A DNA stretch of 64,000 nt from Dehalococcoidia bacterium (GTDB taxonomy: Bacteria > Chloroflexota > Dehalococcoidia > SM23-28-2 > RBG-16-64-32): the NCBI GenBank assembly GCA_963665775.2, contig CAXXTF010000001.1, positions 544,001 to 608,000 on the forward strand, read 5' to 3'. Below the pieces are notes generated by a model. The model ran no database searches. It saw nothing but the letters and a program-made list of their open reading frames with translations, and had not been told where the DNA came from. Of the stretch, positions 15,217 to 57,278 are shown one piece after another (position 1 is the stretch's first letter; each line of letters opens with the position of its first letter). Position numbers and translations under genes: made by a program.

Positions 15217-15996
15217 CTAAAGGGGCCTCGCTAGGCCGCCATCTCGGCGGACCCGCCAGAAGTGCACTCCCATCAAGACCGCCGCTATCAGCGGTAGGGC
15301 GAGGACGTGCAGCGTGTAGAAGCGGATGAGGGCGCTAGGGCCGATCTCGAAGCCGCCGAAGACCACCAACTGCGTCTCGTCCCCGAAGTAGGGAGCCGAG
15401 CCGCCGATGCCGTGGCCGACGGTGATCGCCCACAGCGCTAGCTGGTCCCAGGGCAGCAGGTAGCCGGTGAAGCTGAGGACGAGGGTGAGCACAAGGAGAA
15501 TCACCCCCACTATCCAGTTGAACTCCCGCGGCGCCTTGTAAGCCCCGGTGTAGAAGACGCGCATCATGTGCAGGAAGACAAGGATAACCATGGCGTGGGC
15601 GGTCCAGCGGTGCATATTGCGCATGAACAGTCCCCACCTTACGTTCGTCTCCAGGGCTGCTATGTCCTGGTAGGCCCGGTTCACGTCCGGGACGTAGTAG
15701 AACATGAGGAGGATGCCGGTCACAGTGAGGATCAGGAACATGAAGAACGTTAGGGTGCCCGCACAATACGTATGCGTGATCTTGACGTGCGTCCTGTGAA
15801 TGCGGGTGGGATGCAGGTGGAGGAAGACGTTGGTTGCCACTACCAGCATCTGATTTCGCGGGGTGTTGGGGTAGCCGGAGCGAAATACGGAGCGCCAGAT
15901 GTAGTTGTGGAACACGGCAGAGTAAACACGGTCCTGTAGGACCTGGATCTTTTCCTGGAGGTTGCGTGGTCTACGCGGCTCTTCGGTTGCCGACAT
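15217..15996 (-). CDS. petB: Cytochrome b6-type subunit
   Basis: YC.G heme ci Cys, TGILLMFYY.P, RNMHRWTAH, GYLLPWDQ, RFYTLH. Confidence 0.9.
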   Translation of the reverse strand: MSATEEPRRPRNLQEKIQVLQDRVYSAVFHNYIWRSVFRSGYPNTPRNQMLVVATNVFLHLHPTRIHRTHVKITHTYCAGTLTFFMFLILTVTGILLMFYYVPDVNRAYQDIAALETNVRWGLFMRNMHRWTAHAMVILVFLHMMRVFYTGAYKAPREFNWIVGVILLVLTLVLSFTGYLLPWDQLALWAITVGHGIGGSAPYFGDETQLVVFGGFEIGPSALIRFYTLHVLALPLIAAVLMGVHFWRVRRDGGLARPL

Positions 15997-16204: not shown

Positions 16205-16234
16205 ACTCTAGCATCAGGCCCCGATTACTGTCAA
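16205..16234 (-). promoter_or_regulatory. Probable promoter of the cytochrome b operon
   Basis: TTGACA (16229-16234)-18-TAGAGT with extended TG. Confidence 0.5.
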
Positions 16235-16396
16235 GGGTATCTGTGCTATTTTAGGGCGTGTGTTACCAAAATGCCACGCCTGGCCGTTCGAGCCGCCTGC
16301 GGCACCGGCGGCGGCCGACTGTAGGGCCTCGATCTGGGCCTGGGCGTCAGCTATCTGCTCTTGCAGGGCGCTGACTTCCGGGTTCTGTTTGGCCAT
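16214..16396 (-). pseudogene. Short coiled-coil ORF, possibly a truncated head-scaffold gene
   Basis: Strong RBS AGGAGG; heptad LQEQIADAQAQIEALQ; then runs into the cytochrome b promoter region. Confidence 0.45.
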
Positions 16397-16489
16397 TATG
16401 GGTCCTCCTTCTCAGGGCGCTTCGCTCTCGTGCTAGATCGCCTCTGCTTCTCCCGCCAAGCGGTGTGTTGGGCCTAGGGAGTTGCCAAC

Positions 16490-16693
16490 CTAGGCACCAC
16501 TGCGGCTGCCGAAATAGAAGCCGATGACGTTGCTGAGGGCGGCGATCCAGCCGCCCACTACTATCTTCGTCAGGTCCGATGAGGCGTCATGGGCCAGCAG
16601 GAAGCCGACGATGGCTCCCGCCGCCAGCACCACCCCCAGCGACATCAGGGAGCGCACGCTCCCCCGCGGCAGTCCTAGAGGCTCCTCGTTCAT
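16490..16693 (-). CDS. Small 2-TM holin-like protein
   Basis: PLGLPRGSVRS...VIGFYFGSR; overlaps the portal stop codon (ATGA). Confidence 0.6.
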   Translation of the reverse strand: MNEEPLGLPRGSVRSLMSLGVVLAAGAIVGFLLAHDASSDLTKIVVGGWIAALSNVIGFYFGSRSGA

Positions 16694-18051
16694 TGCTCTC
16701 CTCCTTCACTGTCGATTCGGCTCTCCTCTTCCTGCCAGCGCTCCCACTCGACGTCCGGGTCGGCCACCCCCAGGAGGCTGGCTGCCGTCCGGCGGGAGTG
16801 GATGCCGGCCTCTACCAGCCGTGCCTCCTCCTCCACTAGTCGCGCCCGGTCCTGGGGTAGGATAGGGCCCCAGACCACCCGCGAACGGTAGGGCGCAAAG
16901 CTCTCGCCCGTCTCCTTTTCCAGGATGCGGAGGGTCATCTCGTTTCGACGCCGGAAAGCGGCGGCGCGGATGAGCCGCTTCCGATTCACCTTCTTCAGCA
17001 GGGGGTCCAGCTCCATCTGGAGAGCGACGCCGGACAGGGCTTGCCGGGTCTCCCCGAAGTCGCTGCGCGGCACCTCCGCCAGGTCGTGCAGGGTGCGCAG
17101 CACCAGATTGGCATAGTCCACGTGCAGGCCAACGCCGCCCCCCTGGAGCAGGTCCAGCAGGTAGGCCTTCGCCTTCTCCGGGACCTCCCAAACAGCTCCC
17201 GGCTGCACGGCGATGTCCTGGGCCTCCGTGATGTTCTCCAGCACCGCGATGGGGTTCCCCGATAGCTCCAGGATCAGGGAGAGCTGGGAGACAGCCCGGT
17301 TGAGCTCTCGTAGGGGCTCCTTAAGGGCCGCCAGGTCGGAAATCCCCCAGAATTGCTTCGGCTCCCGCAGGTTGGGGTAGATGACGAAGGGGATGAAGCC
17401 GTAGGGGTTGGCCCGCTCCTCCCACAGGGCGCCGTCCAGCCAGAGCTGAAAATCGGATTCGGTTCAGGCCTCCACGATGGCATGCTCGCTCTTGCGCGAG
17501 CGCGGCAGCGAGCCGAACAGCCTCTCCGCCTCCTCGTGGTCGAGGACGTAGCGAGAGGCGACCCGCCAGACGCGGGAGGGGTCGTCCCCCAGCCACCAGG
17601 CGTACAGCCCCTGCACGTCCGGAGCGGAAACCCGCACCCGTCGCTCAAGGGGGTCCCAGGTGACCTTATAGGCGGCGTCTCCCAGGATGGAGCAGTCGAT
17701 CTCATTGTCGAAATCGAGCTGATCGAGGCTGTTCGCCTCGTATACCTCCCGGATGGCCCGTTCGGCGCGGCGGGCGCTCTCCAGCGCCTCGGGGGAGGCC
17801 TCCTCCGGCTCCACGATGAAGGAGACGCTGGACATAAGGTAGGAGGCCGTCTTCTCGATGACGGTCTTGGCGTAGTTGAAGGTGAGGCGGCGTTCGCGGC
17901 GCCGCTGGGGCTCCAGCCACTGGCGGCCCTGATAGAACTCCAGGTTCTCCCGGTAGGCCCTGAAGCGGCCCAGGTCCAGCCGGACCAGCTGCTGGGGCAG
18001 GGGAAGGGCATCCCCCTGAGCGCTCGCTGCCTCGGCGAAGGTGCTGACCAT
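16690..18051 (-). CDS. Phage portal protein (SPP1 gp6-like) with in-frame TGA at 17464-17466
   Basis: Two ORF-track pieces share one frame: FYQG.QW, LTFNYAK, LGDAAYKV.WD, NPYGFIPFV.YPN, WG.SDL, LSGVAL, V.WGPILPQD. RBS GGAGG precedes ATG 18051. Confidence 0.85.
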
Positions 18052-18067
18052 AGTTATGCCTCCATGT

Positions 18068-18529
18068 CTATCGGGCGGCCTGCCTGGCGGCGGGCAGTCC
18101 TCCCGCTGCGATCTGATCGTTCTCCGCCGAGGTGGGGTGGCCGTTTCGCCGGCGCCCCGGGGGCCGATCCTCCTGGCTCGCCTCGAGCCTTGTCGAAAGG
18201 ATGCGGAAGACGGTGCGGCGGGACACGCCGAAGCGTCCCGCCAGATCGTCCACCGTGGCGCCCCCAAGCCTCAGCTCCAGGATCTTCCGGTCGCGGTCGG
18301 CGTTGATAAGGGCCCGCAGTCCGCCCGGCTCGTCGTAGCGGCAGCGGTTCAGGGGGCAGGTGAGGCAGGAGGGGTGGACTTCGCAGCCGTTGTCCTGGTA
18401 GCGGATGTACTCGGGGAGGGCGTCGGCGCGGACTCTTTTGCCGGTAGGCATTGGGCCGGTAGGCATTGGGCGGACGCTGATGCTGGCCGTTCGACTGTGC
18501 TTGGGGTAGGTCTCCGTCAGAGGGGACAT
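18068..18529 (-). CDS. Cys-rich HTH DNA-binding protein
   Basis: YQDNGCEVHPSCLTCPLNRCRYD followed by HTH LAGRFGVSRRTVFRIL. Confidence 0.8.
   Translation of the reverse strand: MSPLTETYPKHSRTASISVRPMPTGPMPTGKRVRADALPEYIRYQDNGCEVHPSCLTCPLNRCRYDEPGGLRALINADRDRKILELRLGGATVDDLAGRFGVSRRTVFRILSTRLEASQEDRPPGRRRNGHPTSAENDQIAAGGLPAARQAAR
18441..18470. repeat. 15-bp tandem duplication
   Basis: CCGGTAGGCATTGGG x2 (MPTGP MPTG). Confidence 0.85.
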
Positions 18530-18544
18530 CGGCAGCGCTCCCTT

Positions 18545-20008
18545 CTAGATCCTGCCTTGAGCGGAGGCTGGGGGCTGCCGCGTCAGCCGCCCGCGGGCCA
18601 CCCGGGGTCGCGGCTCCAGATCGGCGGCCGCCGCCGCGGCGAGGGCGAGGCTCATGAGATAGTCGTCGTGGCCCTGCGACGGTTCCACGAAGAAGTTCAT
18701 GGTGCGGTTGGGGCGGTACACCAGGCGGGCCTGCTCCATCTCCCGCCAGAAACCGGCGAACTCCGCTGATCCGTCGGCAGCGTACATCTTCAGCCGGCCC
18801 CCGTTGACGGCGGCCAGCAGCCCGTACCCCAGCCGCGACTTGGATTCCGCCGTGAAGCGAAAGGGCTGAACCACCTGCGACCCCAGGGCCCTGGCTAGCA
18901 GGCGGGCCATGGTCTCGCCCAGGCCGGTGGCGTCCAAAACCAGCCGCCGCACCCGCCAGACCTCGCGCAGGAGGTCCACCAGCCGGGCGAGCAGCGAGTC
19001 GTGTAGCACCCCCACCTGGACCAGGTGCTCGACGACCTCCAGACGCGCCTCCGGGACCACGGCGTCCGAGGGCGAGGGCAGGACTCTGGCGATGGTGAGG
19101 ACGCTGGCGTCGCGCCCCCGTGTGGCGGACTCTTGGCCGGGCCCTTGGTGATCGGCGGCGAAGTCCTGACCGGCCAGGTCCAGCCCGGCGACATAAGTGT
19201 CTCCACCTCTGGGCGCGTACTGGCGGCCGTGGCTCCCTTGAAGCTGGGCCCGCTGTCCCGAGCTGAACAGACGGCCGCCGCCGGAGAGCGTCTTCAGGGC
19301 GTACTGGGTGAGGGAAAGGGGATGGTTTTCGCCCAGGCGGGCTCGCTCCGCCTCCACGTATCGGGCGTAGCTCGGGTTGAGGGCCGCCACCACCGTCCAG
19401 TCGGCCGAGAAGTGACGGCGCAGGCCGTCGCGGCGCTCCAACTCCAGGTTCGTCTGAACCGCCTGCTCCAGCAACGTCGAGTCGTCCCAGGGGGTGCCGT
19501 AATAGACGGTGGTGGCGCCGGTGGGAGCGGCCATGGGCCGGAACTCGCGGTCGAACTTCTCCCGGTCGACATCCTGGGCCTCGTCCACCTCCAGAAGGAG
19601 GCCCGCGGTATGGCCCATGACGCTGGCCGAGGGCTCGGCCGACAGGAAGAGCTGGCGGGCCCGGCCCAGGCGGATAGCGCTGCCGTGCTCGCGGGCGCCG
19701 ATGCTCTCCAGGCCGGCCTGGACGAGGCGGCTCCAGAGACGCCGCAGGCTGATCCGCCCCTGGGGCTCAAAGGAGGGGGCGCACTTGATGCCGTCCACGA
19801 CCTGCCGCGCGTGCTTGACCAGGAGGAGCAGCTCCATCTGGGCCGAGAGTTCGTTCTTGCCGGCCTGGCGGGCCATCACCACCGTGAACGTGAGGCCGCG
19901 ATGGCCCAGCACCGAGTCCACGATCGCCCGGCCCGCCTCGGTCTGGTATGGCCGCAGGCGCGGCAACCCGGGGATCGTGGACTCTACACCCTCGATTGCC
20001 GTCGCCAT
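18545..20008 (-). CDS. Terminase large subunit-like protein
   Basis: LRPYQ Q-motif, Walker A ARQAGKNE, Walker B LLEVDEAQ, GTP coupling motif, nuclease GLDLA...DATGLG...HDDY. Confidence 0.88.
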   Translation of the reverse strand: MATAIEGVESTIPGLPRLRPYQTEAGRAIVDSVLGHRGLTFTVVMARQAGKNELSAQMELLLLVKHARQVVDGIKCAPSFEPQGRISLRRLWSRLVQAGLESIGAREHGSAIRLGRARQLFLSAEPSASVMGHTAGLLLEVDEAQDVDREKFDREFRPMAAPTGATTVYYGTPWDDSTLLEQAVQTNLELERRDGLRRHFSADWTVVAALNPSYARYVEAERARLGENHPLSLTQYALKTLSGGGRLFSSGQRAQLQGSHGRQYAPRGGDTYVAGLDLAGQDFAADHQGPGQESATRGRDASVLTIARVLPSPSDAVVPEARLEVVEHLVQVGVLHDSLLARLVDLLREVWRVRRLVLDATGLGETMARLLARALGSQVVQPFRFTAESKSRLGYGLLAAVNGGRLKMYAADGSAEFAGFWREMEQARLVYRPNRTMNFFVEPSQGHDDYLMSLALAAAAAADLEPRPRVARGRLTRQPPASAQGRI

Positions 20009-20009
20009 G

Positions 20010-20243
20010 CTACTGCACCAGCTTCAGGATCAACTGAGCGATGACGGTGCCCGTCACCAGGAAGATGAGACCGTTGAGGCGGCCTTTCAGGTCGCCCACG
20101 TCTCGCTCCAGGACCTGCAGCCGCTGCTCCGCGGCCGCGCGGAAGGCGGCGGCGGAGCAGCGGGCGGCTGTAGCGCCGTCTCTACCGGCTGGGCGGCGGG
20201 TCGGCCGGAAGCGGGAGATAGCGCGGTGCAGGGCAGTGGGCAT
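20010..20243 (-). CDS. Small coiled-coil protein with C-terminal TM helix (probably leaderless)
   Basis: MPTALHRAI...EQRLQVLERDVGDLKGRLNGLIFLVTGTVIAQLILKLVQ; ATG about 6 nt after the -10; 1 nt gap to TerL. Confidence 0.7.
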   Translation of the reverse strand: MPTALHRAISRFRPTRRPAGRDGATAARCSAAAFRAAAEQRLQVLERDVGDLKGRLNGLIFLVTGTVIAQLILKLVQ

Positions 20244-20249
20244 GGTCAG

Positions 20250-20282
20250 AGAATAGAACGTTTGTTCTCCTAATGTCAAGGG
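20250..20282 (-). promoter_or_regulatory. LexA-box-containing promoter P2
   Basis: TTGACA(20274-20279)-18-TATTCT(20250-20255) overlapping AGAAC-GTTT-GTTCT (20255-20268). Confidence 0.85.
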
Positions 20283-20374
20283 AGTTGTGTCAGAAGGCGA
20301 CGCTACGGGGGTCGGAAAGGGATGCCGCGACGCTCGGGGCGCACTCATGTTAGCCGGGCCGCCGTAGCATTCAT

Positions 20375-20698
20375 TCAGGTCGGCGGCAGGAGCTGGTCGC
20401 CCAGGCTGTTGAGGGTGGCCGCCAGGTTGTCGGCCAGGTCGTGCCGCGCCTTGGGGGAGAGCCGGTAGCGCGCCGCTACGGCCTTCACTAGCAGGTCCAT
20501 CCCGCGTACCAGAAGCTGCAGGTCCTCTGGCCGCTCCTCGACGGCGTGCTTCAGGCGCACCCGAAGCAGAGCGATCTCGTCGTCCAGCCCTTCGATATCC
20601 TGGGCATGGTTCAGCTCTACCTGCTCGGCCTCGGTCAGGGCCTGCCGGTAGAAGTTACGGGGCGAGGGGCGACGGCGGGCTCTAGCGGCGCCCGCCAC
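20375..20698 (-). CDS. Helical protein, putative terminase small subunit
   Basis: NFY...L...E...IEGLDDEIALLRVRL resembles TerS-like proteins; lies upstream of TerL; GTG after GAGGTG. Confidence 0.6.
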   Translation of the reverse strand: MAGAARARRRPSPRNFYRQALTEAEQVELNHAQDIEGLDDEIALLRVRLKHAVEERPEDLQLLVRGMDLLVKAVAARYRLSPKARHDLADNLAATLNSLGDQLLPPT

Positions 20699-20882
20699 GG
20701 CGGCCACCTCGCTTCGTCCCGTCAGACGGCCGCCGCCGCGCTGGTGCCGCGTCCAGCACCGCCAGCAGCGCATCGGCGGCGTCGGGTGGTAGGGTCGCCG
20801 CCGCCCGGCTTACTCCCCACAGGAGACAGAGGGCGGCCAGCTCCCACTGCTGCCGTTCGATCGCTACGATTAGGGTGGTCAC
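20682..20882 (-). CDS. Small hypothetical protein
   Basis: GTG after GGAG; MTTLIVAIERQQWELAALCLL...; basic tail overlaps the next gene. Confidence 0.6.
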   Translation of the reverse strand: MTTLIVAIERQQWELAALCLLWGVSRAAATLPPDAADALLAVLDAAPARRRPSDGTKRGGRRGGRR

Positions 20883-20907
20883 GGCTGCTCCTCTCCGGTC
20901 GCGGGCC

Positions 20908-21237
20908 TCAGCGGCTCGCAACGCGACGAAGGATAAGAAGGGATATGAAGGCCGTGCCCGCCAGGGGTATAGCACGGGCCAGCGTCCAGGACGCCCACGA
21001 TGACACGGAAGCGAGGGGAGGATCCGGTGGCGCAGCCGCCACGGATGCCAGGAAGAGAAGGCTCTCCATGATCGCGCCAAGGGAGAGCAGCGCCAGGGCC
21101 AGGGCGGCCACTCGGTGTGACGCCGCTTGCTCCCGGCGGGAGGTGAGACGGTGCAGGAAATAGGTCAGGTTAAGCGTTGCGCAGGCGACGATGGCTAGAT
21201 CCAGGCCCATAGCCGTAGCCCGCCAGGTGGTTAACAA
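20908..21237 (-). CDS. Small 3-TM membrane protein
   Basis: Three hydrophobic segments; RBS GGGAGGT. Confidence 0.65.
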   Translation of the reverse strand: MLTTWRATAMGLDLAIVACATLNLTYFLHRLTSRREQAASHRVAALALALLSLGAIMESLLFLASVAAAPPDPPLASVSSWASWTLARAIPLAGTAFISLLILRRVASR

Positions 21238-21292
21238 GGGTACCTCCCATCATCGAAGCGGTTCCTGTGCTGAAAGGCATGAGACGATATCC

Positions 21293-21325
21293 AGAATAGA
21301 ACACGCGTTCTTATCCTGTCAAGGG
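21293..21325 (-). promoter_or_regulatory. LexA-box-containing promoter P1
   Basis: TTGACA(21317-21322)-18-TATTCT(21293-21298) overlapping AGAAC-ACGC-GTTCT (21298-21311). Confidence 0.85.
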
Positions 21326-21373: not shown

Positions 21374-21715
21374 CTACCCTTCCGGCCCCAGAAGATGACC
21401 GCCCAGGCAGTGCAGGTGCAGATGGTGTACGGTCATGCCCGCGTCTGGCCCCACGTTGAAGGTCAGCCGGTATCCGCGTTCCGCGAGTCCTTCCTCCCGG
21501 GCGACCTGAGCGGCCGTAGTGAACATTCTGGACAGGAGACCCCCGTGCTCGCTGCCGATCTCCGCGGCCGAGACGATGTGCTCCCTGGGGATCACGATGA
21601 AGTGGACGGGCGCCCGCGGGTTAATGTCGCGGATGGCGAACACCAGATCGTCTTCGTACAGCTTATCGACCGGCGTCTTGCCCTGGGCCATGTTGCAGAA
21701 TAGGCAGTCGGCCAT
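21374..21715 (-). CDS. hinT: HIT-family nucleotide hydrolase
   Basis: DCLFC, DINPRAPVH, HLHLHCLGG. Confidence 0.92.
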   Translation of the reverse strand: MADCLFCNMAQGKTPVDKLYEDDLVFAIRDINPRAPVHFIVIPREHIVSAAEIGSEHGGLLSRMFTTAAQVAREEGLAERGYRLTFNVGPDAGMTVHHLHLHCLGGHLLGPEG

Positions 21716-29955: not shown

Positions 29956-30597
29956 CTAGCTTATGGGCCGGATGGCGCCGATGACCCGGCCCTGAACCTC
30001 CACGTTGCTGGCCTCCGTGTATATGGGCTCCATCGTCTCATTGGCCGGCTGCAGCCGAACCCGCTGGCCCTCCCGGAAGAGCTTCTTGAGAGTGGCCTCC
30101 TGCTCCCGCTTAAGCCAGGCCGCCACCATCTCGCCGTCGTTGGCCACCGCCGTGGCCTGCAGGAAGACGATATCGCCATCGTGCACCAGGGCGTCGATCA
30201 TGGAGTTCCCCTTGACGCGCAGGGCGTAGACCTGCTCCCGGTTGCCGAGCATCTCCGGGGAGACCTCAACGGTCTCCTCCTGATCGAAGCTCCCCCAGGT
30301 ATCAGCGGAAGGAACGGGGATCGGCTGCCCGGCGGCGATGGTGCCGATTATGGGGACTGGCACGACCCGCGGCCGCCGGCCGCCCGGTGGCAGCAGCTCA
30401 ATGGCGCGGGACACCTCGCGGTCACGGCGCATGTAGCCCAACCGCTCCAGGATGCGCAGGTTATAGTCGACCACGGACGTGGAACTGATATTGCAGGCTT
30501 CCTGAATCTGGCGGATACTGGGTGGGTAGTCGTGCTCGTCTATGAAATCGCGGACGTATTCAAGGATACGCTGCTGCTTCGCGGAAAGCTCCTTCAT
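29956..30597 (-). CDS. lexA: SOS repressor LexA
   Basis: YPPSIRQI, STSVV, SRAIE, IAAG cleavage site, GNSM Ser, ATLKK Lys; RBS GGAGG. Alternative upstream starts are possible. Confidence 0.96.
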   Translation of the reverse strand: MKELSAKQQRILEYVRDFIDEHDYPPSIRQIQEACNISSTSVVDYNLRILERLGYMRRDREVSRAIELLPPGGRRPRVVPVPIIGTIAAGQPIPVPSADTWGSFDQEETVEVSPEMLGNREQVYALRVKGNSMIDALVHDGDIVFLQATAVANDGEMVAAWLKREQEATLKKLFREGQRVRLQPANETMEPIYTEASNVEVQGRVIGAIRPIS

Positions 30598-30680
30598 CTG
30601 CTCCTCCGTAGTTTGTGCGCCGCTCCCGTTGGGGCTCTCGTCCATCTGCTCCGCACCTGGCACCGCGGCCGTGAGGGCGG

Positions 30681-30733
30681 CGAACCTTTGTTCGTCAGAA
30701 CACTAGTCTAGAGACCATCCGTTCGATTGTCAA
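30681..30733 (-). promoter_or_regulatory. lexA promoter with SOS boxes
   Basis: CGAAC-CTTT-GTTCG (30681-30694), degenerate AGAAC-ACTA-GTCTA and AGACC-ATCC-GTTCG; TTGACA(30728-30733)-17-TAGACT. Confidence 0.85.
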
Positions 30734-55761: not shown

Positions 55762-57078
55762 TCAACCCGCGTCCAGCCTCTCCCGCAGCGCCGTCACCAG
55801 GTTCGCGATCGGCACCCGCGCCTGCTCCATCGTGTCCCGCTCGCGGATCGTCACCGCCTCGTCCTCCAGCGTATCGAAGTCCACGGTCACGGCCAGCGGC
55901 GTCCCGATCTCGTCCTGCCGCCGGTAGCGCCGGCCGATGCTCTGGGCGTCGTCGTACTGCGTCATAAAGTGCGGCCTCAGCAGCTCCCACACCCGTCGCG
56001 CCGGCGGCACCAGCCGCTCATTGCGCGAGAGGGGCAGCACCGCCACCTTCACCGGTGCCAGCTCCGGCTTCAGGCGCAGCAGCGTCCGCTTCTCCCCCCG
56101 CACCTCCTCCTCCACGTAGGAGTCGATGAGCACCGTCAGGAAGCAGCGGTCCACCCCCATGGACGGCTCGATGACGTAGGGCACCACATGCTGGCCGGAC
56201 GCCTCATCGAAGTAGCTCAGGGTCCGCCCGGCGAACTCCTCGTGCCGCTTCAGATCGAAGTCCGTCCGGTTGGCGACCCCCTCTATCTCCGAGAAACCGC
56301 CGAAGGGAAAGTCGTACTCGATGTCCACCGTCCGCTTGGCGTAGTGCGATAGCTCCTCCGCGGAGTGCTCGCGGATGCGCAGGTTCTCTGGGCGAACGCC
56401 CAGCCCCTGCCACCAGTCGAACCGCTCCTGGATCCAGCGCTCGTGCCACTCCTCGTCGGAGCCCGGCATGACGAAGTACTCGATCTCCATCTGCTCGAAC
56501 TCACGGTCCCGGAAGATGAAGTTGCCGGGCGTGATCTCGTTCCGGAACGCCTTGCCGATCTGGGCGATGCCGAAGGGGAGCTTCTTGCGCATACTCGTCA
56601 TCACGTTGTCGAAGTTGACGAAGATCCCCTGCGCCGTCTCCGGCCGCAGGTAGGCGACGGACGCCTCGTCCTCCACTGGGCCCACGAAGGTCCGGAACAT
56701 CAGGTTGAACATGCGGGGCTCTGTCAGCTCGCCGCCGCACTCTGGGCAGCGCTGGTCGGTCGTATCCCCCAACTCGTCGGCCCGGAAGCGGCGCTTGCAG
56801 GACTTGCAGTCCACCATGGGGTCGGCGAAGGTGTCCACGTGGCCGCTGGCCACCCACGTCTTGGGGTTCATGATGATCGACGCGTCCAGCCCCACGACGT
56901 CGTCCCGCTGCTGGACGGTGGCCTTCCACCAGGCGCTCTTGATGTTGTTCTTCAGCTCGACGCCCAGGGGGCCGTAGTCCCAGAAGCCGCCGATGCCGCC
57001 GTAGATCTCGCTGCTCTGGAAGACGAATCCCCGCCGTTTGCAGAGGGAGACGAACGTTTCCATCGACTGCTGGTTCAT
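55762..57078 (-). CDS. glyQS: Glycine--tRNA ligase (alpha2 type)
   Basis: [53 protein letters not shown]. Confidence 0.97.
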
Positions 57079-57278
57079 ATGCGCACCTGACTGAACGGTT
57101 AGGGGGTGGGTTAGCTGCAAGTTAGCAGCTTGCTTGCGCCAAGTCAAAGCGATCGGCCTCTTGGCATCGGCCCGGCTTTCTTGACACCCTCATGGGCCGG
57201 TGCTAGCATCGACTCGCGTCAAAAATCTATCTGTTTCTCTTCCCCCAGCGGCTGGCACCAAAGTACTGGAGATAGGCA

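Follow-up and report, generated by a model that had tools for sequence, protein, structure and literature searches.

Gene content of the packaging segment

The window analysed here is a 64,000-nucleotide stretch of DNA from a Dehalococcoidia bacterium. The nine minus-strand genes claimed by the initial annotation were confirmed as ORFs at 16214-21237, flanked by the HIT-family gene hinT (21374-21715) and, on the other side, by a cytochrome b gene (15217-15996), both recognized by Pfam. The gene at 18545-20008 encodes an intact 487-aa large terminase (TerL) with an ATPase domain and an RNase-H-like nuclease domain. Its Pfam match to Terminase_6C was sub-threshold (E 5.5e-4; 20.4 bits, below the cut-off of 22.6). 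The AF2 model (pLDDT 90.3) had large terminases as its best Foldseek matches, HK97 (6z6d) first, then Sf6, T4 gp17 and D6E, with E values ranging from 1.7e-15 for HK97 to 1e-13 across these top matches. Residues Q48, G50, K51, E143, D277, D359 and D449 were invariant in 35 aligned homologues, and D142 was kept in at least 90% of these sequences. The Walker A lysine, the Walker B Asp-Glu pair, the C-terminal acidic triad and the terminase fold are thus all present, and the ATPase and nuclease motifs read originally from the sequence are borne out by fold and invariant residues. TerL is present as a single copy in its own genome and in nearly all of the order genomes that carry it.

Upstream of TerL lie four small genes. 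The first, g1 (20908-21237), encodes a small membrane protein of 109 aa from a TTG start, with an alternative ATG nine codons inside; it is conserved in families f1 and f6 at 25-56% identity. The product of g2 (20682-20882) has 66 aa and a basic C-terminus and shows 40-70% identity in relatives. The fourth, g4 (20010-20243, with the start taken as the ATG immediately after promoter P2), encodes a coiled-coil protein of 77 aa whose C-terminal part forms a single transmembrane helix, with 45-65% identity in relatives; small proteins of similar shape precede TerL in other classes. Downstream of the portal gene, g8 (16490-16693) encodes a 67-aa protein that is holin-like in shape only, with 52-85% identity within family f1. 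Pfam and PHROG searches gave no family for g1, g2 or g8, and g4 likewise had no family match. Holins are small proteins with one to three transmembrane helices and a charged C-terminus, encoded in a lysis cassette together with an endolysin. Of the candidates, g1 showed two hydrophobic segments over the threshold plus a weaker N-terminal one (two to three in total), g4 one and g8 two. These are the proteins first described as a 3-TM protein, a coiled-coil TM protein and a holin-like protein; the holin label is unproven, and no endolysin was seen in the gene set of the order.

The third gene, g3 (20375-20773 in the ORF list), is a candidate small terminase by position only. Its family alignment places the conserved core from ...RNFYRQ onwards, so that the true start probably lies near 20707. 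A g3 homologue stands directly before TerL in 64 of 80 phage-type loci from IMG/VR, and g3 was found in 5/5 family-f2 genomes at a separate locus. The AF2 model is all-helical (pLDDT 84.5). No Pfam match was obtained among 22 family members and no sequence match in the PDB; the best Foldseek match in BFVD had an E value of 0.36, and the best VIA Z score of 7.1 is at the noise level for helical proteins. A small terminase would combine an N-terminal DNA-binding domain with an oligomerisation core and be encoded beside TerL. The TerS-like label therefore agrees with the position ahead of TerL but is unproven by Pfam, PDB sequence or fold.

Between TerL and the portal gene, a gene at 18068-18529 encodes a 153-aa Cys4 and helix-turn-helix protein. 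The conserved part begins at about residue 31 and consists of C-x6-C-x2-C-x5-C followed by an HTH_23/sigma-r4-like motif; the HTH_23 match (6e-6) is in line with the original label of a Cys4-HTH regulator. With a weak PHROG match to a late transcriptional activator (1.3e-4), the protein is likely a DNA-binding regulator. Every chromosomal relative within the clade has the gene in this same place; in the phage-type contig L203 it comes after the adaptor gene.

The portal gene (16690-18051; SPP1 type by Pfam) is interrupted by an in-frame TGA. Both halves match SPP1_portal (PF05133), at profile positions 13-120 and 287-414 (2.4e-7 and 5.6e-12), each above the 25.5-bit cut-off, but the gene does not form one full-length ORF over this profile. 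The TGA at 17464-17466 replaces a conserved Trp codon, which is TGG in 17/17 relatives, and portal orthologues in relatives are intact (438-480 aa). The stop is polymorphic among near-identical strains: contigs of runs X8 and X9 have TGG, those of X1 and X2 TGA. The last ORF, g9 (16214-16396), called a truncated coiled-coil ORF at first, turned out to be what is left of a gene for head scaffolding, a mere stump. About the first 28 of its 60 aa are homologous to scaffold proteins that are full-length (158-171 aa) in relatives, and the orthologue in L036 matches PHROG head scaffolding (phrog_1793, 9e-5). A two-piece alignment located 391 extra letters between 16307 and 16314 in near-identical strains (X8 record 17, X9 record 23). 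The proposed HMM and Foldseek check thus succeeded for TerL (by fold) and the portal (by Pfam) and left TerS without a match. The initial annotation holds in part: the identity of the portal stood, and its in-frame TGA had been overlooked.

LexA boxes in the promoters

Two minus-strand promoters contain a LexA box. In P1 (21293-21322), the Cheo-type box GAACGCGTGTTC at 21299-21310 is located between the -35 element TTGACA and the -10 element TATTCT; P2 (20250-20279) has the same architecture, with the box GAACAAACGTTC at 20256-20267. Both follow the identical pattern TTGACA-N6-GAACN4GTTC-TATTCT. P1 is predicted to drive g1-g2-g3, and P2 to drive g4-TerL-HTH-portal-g8, under the control of LexA. 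The presumed repressor is encoded on the minus strand at 29956-30663 (Pfam LexA_DNA_bind 4.7e-18, Peptidase_S24 9.8e-27) and has a box of its own at 30682-30693; another lies between the SRAP gene and the gene for an IMS-family polymerase. The LexA of Dehalococcoides is reported, in a J. Bacteriol. paper of 2002, to bind this GAAC-N4-GTTC motif. GAACN4GTTC was found three times in the window, whereas shuffled sequences had a mean of 0.52 and reached three in 2/100 cases. The 30-nt promoter-plus-box pattern occurred twice without mismatch and in 0/100 shuffles, and these two copies are the only ones in the whole 2.35-Mb genome. A palindrome that is placed inside promoters and shared with lexA and further SOS genes of one genome is the arrangement of a Cheo-type operator, the consensus of which is given for B. 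subtilis in PMC4234289.

The boxes are conserved in relatives. A box-bearing promoter homologous to P1 lies upstream of g1 in L031, L032, L033 and L034, and a LexA-box promoter was found upstream of TerL in 20/20 order-level loci. The scaffold gene was detected in 12 order-level loci, and in 7 of them a further box occurs no more than 300 nt upstream of it. LexA boxes are rare in the 80 IMG/VR relatives (12 in 818 kb), and in only five of these does a box lie in the 2 kb upstream of TerL. The control by host LexA boxes suggested originally thus agrees with the conserved motifs, from which we infer that LexA binds at P1 and P2.

Second locus, distribution and inheritance

The initial annotation had expected capsid and tail genes elsewhere, and a search of the rest of the genome found major capsid, adaptor and tail-like genes at G000 C1:353722-358743, ∼208 kb from TerL, between glycine-cleavage/aminotransferase genes and ruvB. 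The adaptor matches SU10_adaptor (1.1e-7), and the 652-aa tail-like protein was linked tentatively to 'phage tail protein' clusters by an Atlas search. In the assembly sequence the major capsid gene (C1:353722-354605) is split over two frames, and no intact gene for an HK97-fold major capsid protein was found in this genome; the orthologue in L036 matches phrog_212 (3e-78), PF05065 (1.9e-10) and also SU10_MCP (1.6e-8). Relatives hold the gene set between the host genes hinT and ruvB. The order hinT-g1-g2-g3-g4-TerL-HTH-portal is retained in families f1 and f6, and the sets of family f6 stop a few kb short of ruvB. Here the set is parted between the scaffold and capsid genes, and one locus retains hinT as its neighbour and the other ruvB. 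In complete genomes TerL and the capsid gene are 49-172 kb or more apart.

We consider it probable that the segment represents the DNA-packaging part of an ancient, vertically inherited, LexA-controlled GTA-like or PBSX-like domesticated element that is decaying in this strain. Judged by sequence, the portal (nonsense codon) and the scaffold gene (deletion of ∼390 nt) have recently lost function, and the capsid gene has probably lost it as well through the frameshift seen in the assembly. This strain most likely no longer makes particles.

No integrase was seen in the packaging segment or its flanks, nor in the hinT-g1 interval of L031 and L032, and a search of the window for flanking direct repeats of att type found none. 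Inspection combined with partial Pfam scans showed no integration, replication or lysogeny genes of its own in the segment, the capsid locus or the flanks of relatives. Structural and packaging genes without these modules are found in GTAs; an intact prophage has an integrase and att sites around a contiguous complete phage genome, and what was found here is two loci 208 kb apart. These data also bear on the possibility of an active mobile element, a temperate phage or helper-dependent satellite that inserts repeatedly beside hinT. Such elements exist nearby in sequence space: IMG/VR has 340 contigs with relatives of the window TerL, and one of them, L203, carries integrase, excisionase-like and primase-like genes. 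However, the failure to see an integrase or an att-like repeat here, or an integrase in the relatives' flanks inspected, the single-copy TerL whose tree and dS match those of the host (see below), the scattering of parts over tens to hundreds of kb in other complete genomes as well, and a TerL clade distinct from that of the IMG/VR contigs in which TerL is followed directly by portal make this explanation highly improbable.

Of 41 genomes from the family and order, 37 had TerL (19/19 of high quality) and 30 had the capsid gene (17/19 of high quality). TerL was present in 175 of 251 genomes of the class, in keeping with the occurrence in Dehalococcoidia suggested by the initial annotation; 137 had TerL and capsid, 38 TerL alone, 5 capsid alone and 71 neither, and these counts include both the chromosomal lineage and true prophages of a sister phage clade. 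In the proposed comparison with the host, the TerL tree followed that of the housekeeping gene GlyRS. Across 36 genomes the two shared 10 of 33 splits (label permutation mean 0.17, maximum 3), both being noisy single-gene trees with 23/33 splits not common to both. Patristic distances correlated with r = 0.76, a value reached in 0/999 Mantel permutations, and dS for TerL and GlyRS in the same genome pairs was 0.25/0.36, 0.29/0.23, 0.72/0.67 and 1.07/1.03. The window TerL falls in a clade of 54 rows (support 97) with 45 TerL-HTH-portal loci, one TerL-portal locus and 8 cut or rearranged loci, as judged by gene order. A separate clade is formed by the IMG/VR contigs in which portal comes immediately after TerL; the TerL of L203 is not among the tree rows. 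Vertical inheritance is thus indicated by single copy number, a constant position between hinT and ruvB, and the agreement of tree and dS with the housekeeping gene.

Purifying selection was indicated by dN/dS of 0.16-0.25 for TerL and 0.13-0.16 for intact portal pairs, with 0.08-0.20 for GlyRS; the values were 0.10-0.26 for g4, 0.21-0.46 for g3 and 0.37-0.48 for HTH. The proposed dN/dS check therefore came out in favour of selection, and inheritance and selection across the host clade are as expected of a GTA. An ordinary cryptic prophage, that is, a functionless defective remnant in slow decay, would explain the three lesions of this strain and the truncated portals or missing capsid genes of other family-f1 genomes, and real temperate phages are the nearest relatives outside the clade. 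We nevertheless regard it as improbable. The element is kept across the order although GlyRS identity to the window drops to ∼68-86%, dN/dS is low and the TerL catalytic residues are invariant, the LexA-box promoters are conserved, the genes stay conserved after scattering over several loci, and TerL and capsid are intact even in genomes of 0.8-1.0 Mb (G141, G174, G274 and G256).

Several family-f1 lineages, e.g. G005, G007, G019, G010 and G020, have lost the portal and/or capsid gene, and therefore retention is not universal. These losses raise the alternative of an exapted remnant, in which TerL, perhaps with g4 and HTH, has an SOS-induced, particle-independent role instead of gene transfer; TerL could be a damage-inducible nuclease or translocase, or the set could act against infection by phages of the related lineage, which are available as possible targets. 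Genus g8 keeps TerL, HTH, g1-g4 and both LexA promoters intact, with a portal stump and a capsid gene that is absent or a 54-aa remnant. One example is G019, assembled as one 2.5-Mb contig at 95% completeness; its TerL still gives a dN/dS of 0.20 when paired with that of G007. TerL without a capsid match in the 38 class genomes, and lone TerL genes among unrelated genes in other Chloroflexota classes (L051 and L054), with catalytic residues invariant there too, point the same way. On the other hand, the capsid, where present, is better conserved than TerL and nearly always a single intact copy (77-100% identity to the family-f2 capsid across the order, 54-81% in the class), the portal evolves with the low dN/dS given above, and the co-retention of scaffold, adaptor and tail-like genes is hard to account for without particles. 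An exapted remnant thus appears unlikely, if less so than a cryptic prophage.

Proposed mode of action and comparison with known systems

The domesticated element would have its origin in SU10-like podophages, a temperate lineage still in circulation among Dehalococcoidia, and would have lost its integrase, replication and lysogeny genes and gained a LexA box inside the promoter of each operon. It would then have passed vertically through the order, with related forms over much of the class, maintained by purifying selection. The complete set would encode a phage-derived, chromosomally fixed head, packaging motor and short tail, of which this half comprises the g1-g2-g3 operon, the g4-TerL-HTH-portal-g8 operon and the scaffold stump. 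DNA damage would lead to LexA cleavage and joint de-repression of all operons; procapsids would assemble, TerL would package DNA through the portal, possibly with g3 as small subunit, and the small membrane proteins would release the particles. Particle formation, packaging substrate and DNA transfer are predictions from the genes. A GTA would pack largely random host DNA, in fragments too short to contain the element, and hand it on to recipient cells; the term is applied to the element as a hypothesis. The DNA-damage-inducible GTA-like system first proposed agrees with inheritance, selection, promoters and capsid locus, although the strain's own copy is defective.

The Dehalococcoidia temperate phages of IMG/VR (e.g. 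L203) have the gene order g3-TerL-portal-scaffold-capsid-adaptor-...-Cys4-HTH and share homologous g3, portal, scaffold, adaptor, Cys4-HTH and a 588-652-aa protein with the element, with TerL identity of ∼48-54% and capsid identity of 45-58% to the copy in this genome. They differ in having integrase, excisionase-like and primase-like genes, TerL followed directly by portal, a lower GC content (52.7% in L203) and, in almost all cases, no LexA boxes. Because such closely related integrase-bearing phages exist, the element appears to be a domesticated offshoot of a phage family that is still alive.

GTAs of the RcGTA type in Alphaproteobacteria (Rhodobacter capsulatus, Caulobacter and Dinoroseobacter) likewise have phage-derived head and packaging genes but no integration and replication modules, are inherited vertically within a large clade under purifying selection and have genes scattered over several loci; their expression is linked to host regulators including SOS, a link predicted here from promoter motifs. 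In contrast, the present element belongs to Chloroflexota, has an SU10-like short-tailed head and adaptor instead of a siphovirus-like head-tail cluster, and carries a LexA operator directly inside each promoter. In RcGTA, according to PMC9638019, LexA acts indirectly through CckA/CtrA, and GafA is the direct activator. For the element, particle production and random packaging are predictions from its genes.

PBSX of Bacillus subtilis is a chromosomal, non-infectious, SOS-induced phage-like element that packages host DNA; its tail is contractile, it has an Xre repressor of its own, and it is not known beyond the close relatives of a single species. The element described here is apparently under host LexA itself and spans an order or more. 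The Bacillus tectivirus GIL01, as described in PMC4551915, uses host LexA as repressor, with Gram-positive-type boxes in phage promoters, and is an autonomous replicating phage with the co-repressor gp7. Both have LexA boxes in their promoters, and SOS switches on phage genes directly in GIL01, as predicted for the element. Unlike GIL01, and unlike the related phage contigs in which such boxes are rare, the element is non-mobile and bears its boxes on structural and packaging operons.

Packaging genes of the window and head genes at a second locus

Nine ORFs (g1, g2, g3, g4, TerL, HTH, portal, g8 and g9) run head to tail on the minus strand from 21237 to 16214, between a HIT-family gene, hinT (21374-21715), and a cytochrome b gene (15217-15996). 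TerL (18545-20008, minus strand) was examined with Pfam, an AlphaFold model and Foldseek. Its Pfam match to Terminase_6C was sub-threshold. The model, built with 35 homologues as input, reached a pLDDT of 90.3, and its closest PDB structures were the large terminases of HK97, Sf6, T4 and D6E (E from 1.7e-15 to ~1e-13). All 35 sequences share the lysine of Walker A, the glutamate of Walker B and three nuclease aspartates, and the large terminase named in the initial annotation was thus borne out. The portal assignment also stood: SPP1_portal was matched in two pieces, each above the Pfam cut-off, which form a single frame split by one TGA (17464-17466). The HTH gene, between TerL and the portal gene, codes for a protein with a four-cysteine motif ahead of an HTH_23/sigma-region-4-like helix-turn-helix (Pfam). 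Its non-conserved N-terminal part contains an exact 15-nt tandem duplication in two copies (18440-18469), by which PMPTG is repeated in the protein. The proteins of g1, g4 and g8 are small and have two to three, one and two hydrophobic segments, respectively. The g3 protein is conserved, all-helical in a predicted model and basic at the N-terminus. It had been proposed as the small terminase; Pfam (22 members), a profile against PDB sequences, Foldseek against BFVD and a wide VIA-align search all stayed at or below noise, and gene position is the sole basis of this candidate label.

Capsid and tail genes had been expected elsewhere in the genome, if not lost. Scans of the window's own genome with PF05065, PF25209 and a 665-aa capsid fusion of another class gave zero matches. 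In IMG/VR, 340 contigs encode a relative of the window TerL, of which 80 were kept. Most of the 80 show the order g3-TerL-portal, coiled-coil scaffold, capsid (~306-312 aa), adaptor, Cys4-HTH and a 588-652-aa protein. One of them, L203, additionally carries a tyrosine integrase, an excisionase-like gene and a primase-like gene and is a real temperate phage. The own genome was then searched by tblastn with proteins of the IMG/VR relatives. This search found a capsid gene at C1:353722-354605 (L256 7723-8606), 52-58% identical to the capsid of contig L227, and overturned the idea of a capsid-less module. An adaptor (43% identity), a large protein (24-26% identity) and two small ORFs lie at the same locus, designated locus B, which is bounded by glycine-cleavage/aminotransferase genes and ruvB, ~208 kb from TerL (C1:562548-564008). 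Capsid, adaptor and tail-like genes are therefore present outside the window. The PF05065 scan probably missed the capsid gene because a frameshift hid it, a false negative that calls for caution in family scans of broken genes. Orthologues from the relative L036 matched a major head protein (phrog_212, 3e-78; PF05065, 1.9e-10; SU10_MCP), head scaffolding (phrog_1793, 9e-5) and SU10_adaptor (1.1e-7). As a lead from an Atlas search, the 652-aa protein falls in Chloroflexota clusters labelled phage tail protein. The PF25209 capsid type was rejected for this element; it belongs to other Chloroflexota classes and occurs in only 12 of the 251 class genomes.

Promoters and LexA boxes

The promoters before g1 (P1, 21293-21322) and g4 (P2, 20250-20279) have an identical layout over 30 nt: TTGACA, six bases, GAAC-N4-GTTC and TATTCT. 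This pattern had zero matches in shuffled windows, and P1 and P2 are its only two occurrences in the 2.35-Mb genome, which holds 20 GAACN4GTTC sites. One site is directly upstream of lexA (window 30682), whose LexA domains were confirmed by Pfam, and another separates an SRAP gene from an IMS-family polymerase gene; all three are classic SOS genes. A Dehalococcoides LexA reportedly binds a GAACN4GTTC-type motif, according to a 2002 paper. GAACN4GTTC corresponds to the SOS box of Bacillus type (PMC4234289). In all 20 order-level loci a perfect box lies within a TTGAC...TA promoter upstream of TerL, and of the 12 such loci with a detected scaffold gene, 7 have an extra box no more than 300 nt upstream of that gene. 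The region before the own-genome capsid gene has the same promoter layout with a degenerate right half-site. The 80 IMG/VR loci contain just 12 boxes in 818 kb, and a box lies within 2 kb upstream of TerL in 5 of the 80. The predicted LexA control is, on these sequences, a derived, host-side feature of the order-level element.

The P2 of relatives (e.g. loci L026, L028, L029, L033, L034, L040 and L042) has a conserved ATTGACCATAA directly upstream of the -35 and a second, half-conserved box, CGCAC-N4-GTTC, after the -10. This second box suggests tandem operators or the site of another factor. The P2 of the window has neither element. Outside the window, three further GAACN4GTTC boxes stand in promoter-like contexts (G000:C2:108300, C2:1147626 and C1:818896). 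One precedes a 298-aa ORF with no Pfam match, adjacent to IS and serine-recombinase genes, one a small ORF with a PIN-domain gene, and one an isochorismatase-family gene; these may also belong to the LexA regulon.

Distribution, descent and selection

The close relatives belong to Dehalococcoidia. TerL was found in 37 of 41 genomes of the family and order (high-quality 19/19), where full-length matches are 57-75% identical to the window protein, in 175 of 251 class genomes (high-quality 131/181; ~50-60%) and in 112 of 301 genomes of the phylum sample (high-quality 84/257; ~37-52% outside the class). The class and phylum tallies take in the unpublished genomes G272, G312 and G422, and no claim depends on these alone. 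Copy number in the family and order is nearly always one, and presence or absence in the phylum sample is uniform within families. The capsid gene was found in 30 of 41 order-level genomes (high-quality 17/19; 77-100% identity to a family-f2 capsid) and in 142 of 251 class genomes (high-quality 106/181), nearly always as a single intact copy. In the class, 137 genomes have both genes, 38 TerL only, 5 the capsid gene only and 71 neither; no statistical test was applied to these counts because kin are not independent. TerL and the capsid gene are 49-86 kb apart in five complete genomes of genus g31, 172 kb apart in G066 and hundreds of kb apart in G101, G129, G200 and G243. Genomes of 0.8-1.0 Mb (G141, G174, G256 and G274) hold both.

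The order hinT-g1-g2-g3-g4-TerL-HTH-portal is conserved in families f1 and f6. In f6 the set continues with scaffold, capsid, small genes, adaptor, large protein and a 70-aa gene, and stops a few kb before ruvB. The own genome has the hinT flank at one locus and the ruvB flank at the other; judged by gene order, its set came apart between the scaffold and capsid genes. A complete gene set measures roughly 12 kb; relatives G029, G030 and G025 have TerL, portal, scaffold, capsid, adaptor and tail-like genes all intact. Family f2 retains g3 in 5 of 5 genomes, even though it lies 15 kb away from TerL or on a different contig. Cargo genes lie between hinT and g1 in f6, and no integrase was seen there; in L031 (3873-6418) and L032 (1951-6436) they are a secreted-protein gene cluster with a signal-peptidase-like gene. 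L036 has other cargo, e.g. a phosphotriesterase-family gene, between the portal and scaffold genes. In the window, direct repeats considered as att sites were short and chance-like only.

Several loci differ from this arrangement. Genus g46 of family f26 (e.g. G060, G139 and G172) has three to five TerL copies against one capsid match each, and the additional terminases lack a capsid counterpart. L043 (G094) and genus g75, with complete genomes of ~1.5 Mb, keep g3 and TerL; the portal gene is rearranged and truncated, and there is no capsid match. In other Chloroflexota classes, L050 (G441), L053 (G482), L052 (G340) and L175 (G371) carry TerL with a portal, an SU10-like adaptor, a lysin and a 644-716-aa protein that ends in a C-terminal Phage_capsid_4 domain. 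A divergent lexA-like gene is adjacent in G441, and the capsid gene of G371 is 450 kb from TerL. Five contigs filed as viral in IMG/VR (L176, L186, L187, L191 and L197) have the chromosomal TerL-HTH-portal order and look like pieces of host chromosome called viral; L176 has 65.7% GC and g2-g4 as in the window. In INPHARED, where four records matched, the nearest TerL was 31% identical (Bacillus phage vB_BboS-125), and no cultured phage relative was found.

Vertical inheritance had been proposed, and the trees agree with it. TerL was compared with GlyRS (window 55762-57147) in 36 genomes, excluding G013 and G031 for a frameshift in one of the two genes. Of 33 splits, the trees have 10 in common (label permutation mean 0.17, maximum 3), and patristic distances correlate with r = 0.76, a value reached by 0 of 999 Mantel permutations. 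This shows congruence, not identity; 23 of the 33 splits are unshared, as expected of single genes. In a FastTree tree of 153 rows, with several long branches flagged, the window falls in a 54-row clade (support 97) made up of 45 TerL-HTH-portal orders, one TerL-portal and eight cut or rearranged. IMG/VR contigs with the portal gene directly after TerL form a separate clade. Nei-Gojobori estimates of dN/dS over five close genome pairs indicate purifying selection, at 0.16-0.25 for TerL and 0.13-0.16 for intact portal pairs. Values were 0.10-0.26 for g4, 0.21-0.46 for g3, 0.37-0.48 for HTH, 0.08-0.20 for GlyRS and 0.06-0.19 for hinT, and the dS of TerL equals that of GlyRS within the same pairs.

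Lesions of the window strain and nature of the element

Where the portal gene has TGA, all 17 relatives examined have TGG. The segment was compared with Logan contigs of four runs, each from a different study; run X1 may be the source sample. X1 and X2 have the window's letter at the TGA. X8 and X9 show 18 differences from the window over ~4.1 kb and a plus-strand C at 17464, hence TGG, so the nonsense codon is a real, recent, strain-level change. Programmed readthrough or selenocysteine was rejected, as relatives have plain TGG and sister strains differ by that one base. The contigs of X8 and X9 align as two blocks, with 391 of their letters unplaced between 16307 and 16314, the point where g9 loses its likeness to the 158-171-aa scaffold genes of relatives. 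Since the surplus sits where g9 diverges, the window strain has also lost ~390 nt of its scaffold gene. The own-genome capsid gene is split over two frames, and it looks as if one G was lost from a G-run. A pattern search of metagenome contigs for both alleles of the frameshift gave 0 stretches and is uninformative both ways. The window strain is probably unable to make particles, and its lesions provide a natural comparison of broken with intact alleles.

Two observations speak against the best account given below. The portal and/or capsid gene has been lost repeatedly in family f1 (G005, G007, G019, G010, G020 and the window strain). TerL is intact and constrained even without these genes, with dN/dS of 0.20 in genus g8, and may therefore also have a role independent of particles, although we consider this rather improbable. 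The element is best explained as a domesticated offshoot of a temperate-phage lineage that is still living. It would have become a fixed part of the chromosome, lost its mobility genes, come under LexA control and been retained by selection, and LexA cleavage would lead to particles carrying DNA. Given the small, streamlined genomes of Dehalococcoidia, the retention of about 12-15 genes of phage origin speaks for a genuine benefit. A broader proposal, possible though doubtful, is that much of Dehalococcoidia, including the 0.8-1.0-Mb genomes, keeps a phage-derived particle machine fired by DNA damage with LexA on each promoter, that the particles package host DNA as a Chloroflexota gene transfer agent (GTA), and that the terminase has a second, particle-independent SOS role. 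Such a role would account for the persistence of the terminase in genomes that have lost portal and capsid genes.

To our knowledge, few lineages have established GTAs, Alphaproteobacteria foremost among them. If real, an SOS-wired, vertically inherited particle set across the order, perhaps most of the class, would mean a new phylum for GTAs and a new head type (SU10-like, short-tailed). A transfer agent could also help explain the movement of genomic islands in Dehalococcoidia. The main texts of openly accessible articles, judged by title or abstract, yielded no account of such a system in Dehalococcoidia or Chloroflexota. At gene level, the element has the profile of a GTA or a PBSX-like element. 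In RcGTA, LexA acts indirectly, through CckA (PMC9638019), whereas here the predicted LexA operators lie directly on structural operons; by this comparison, a GTA-like element would have a control logic not seen before.
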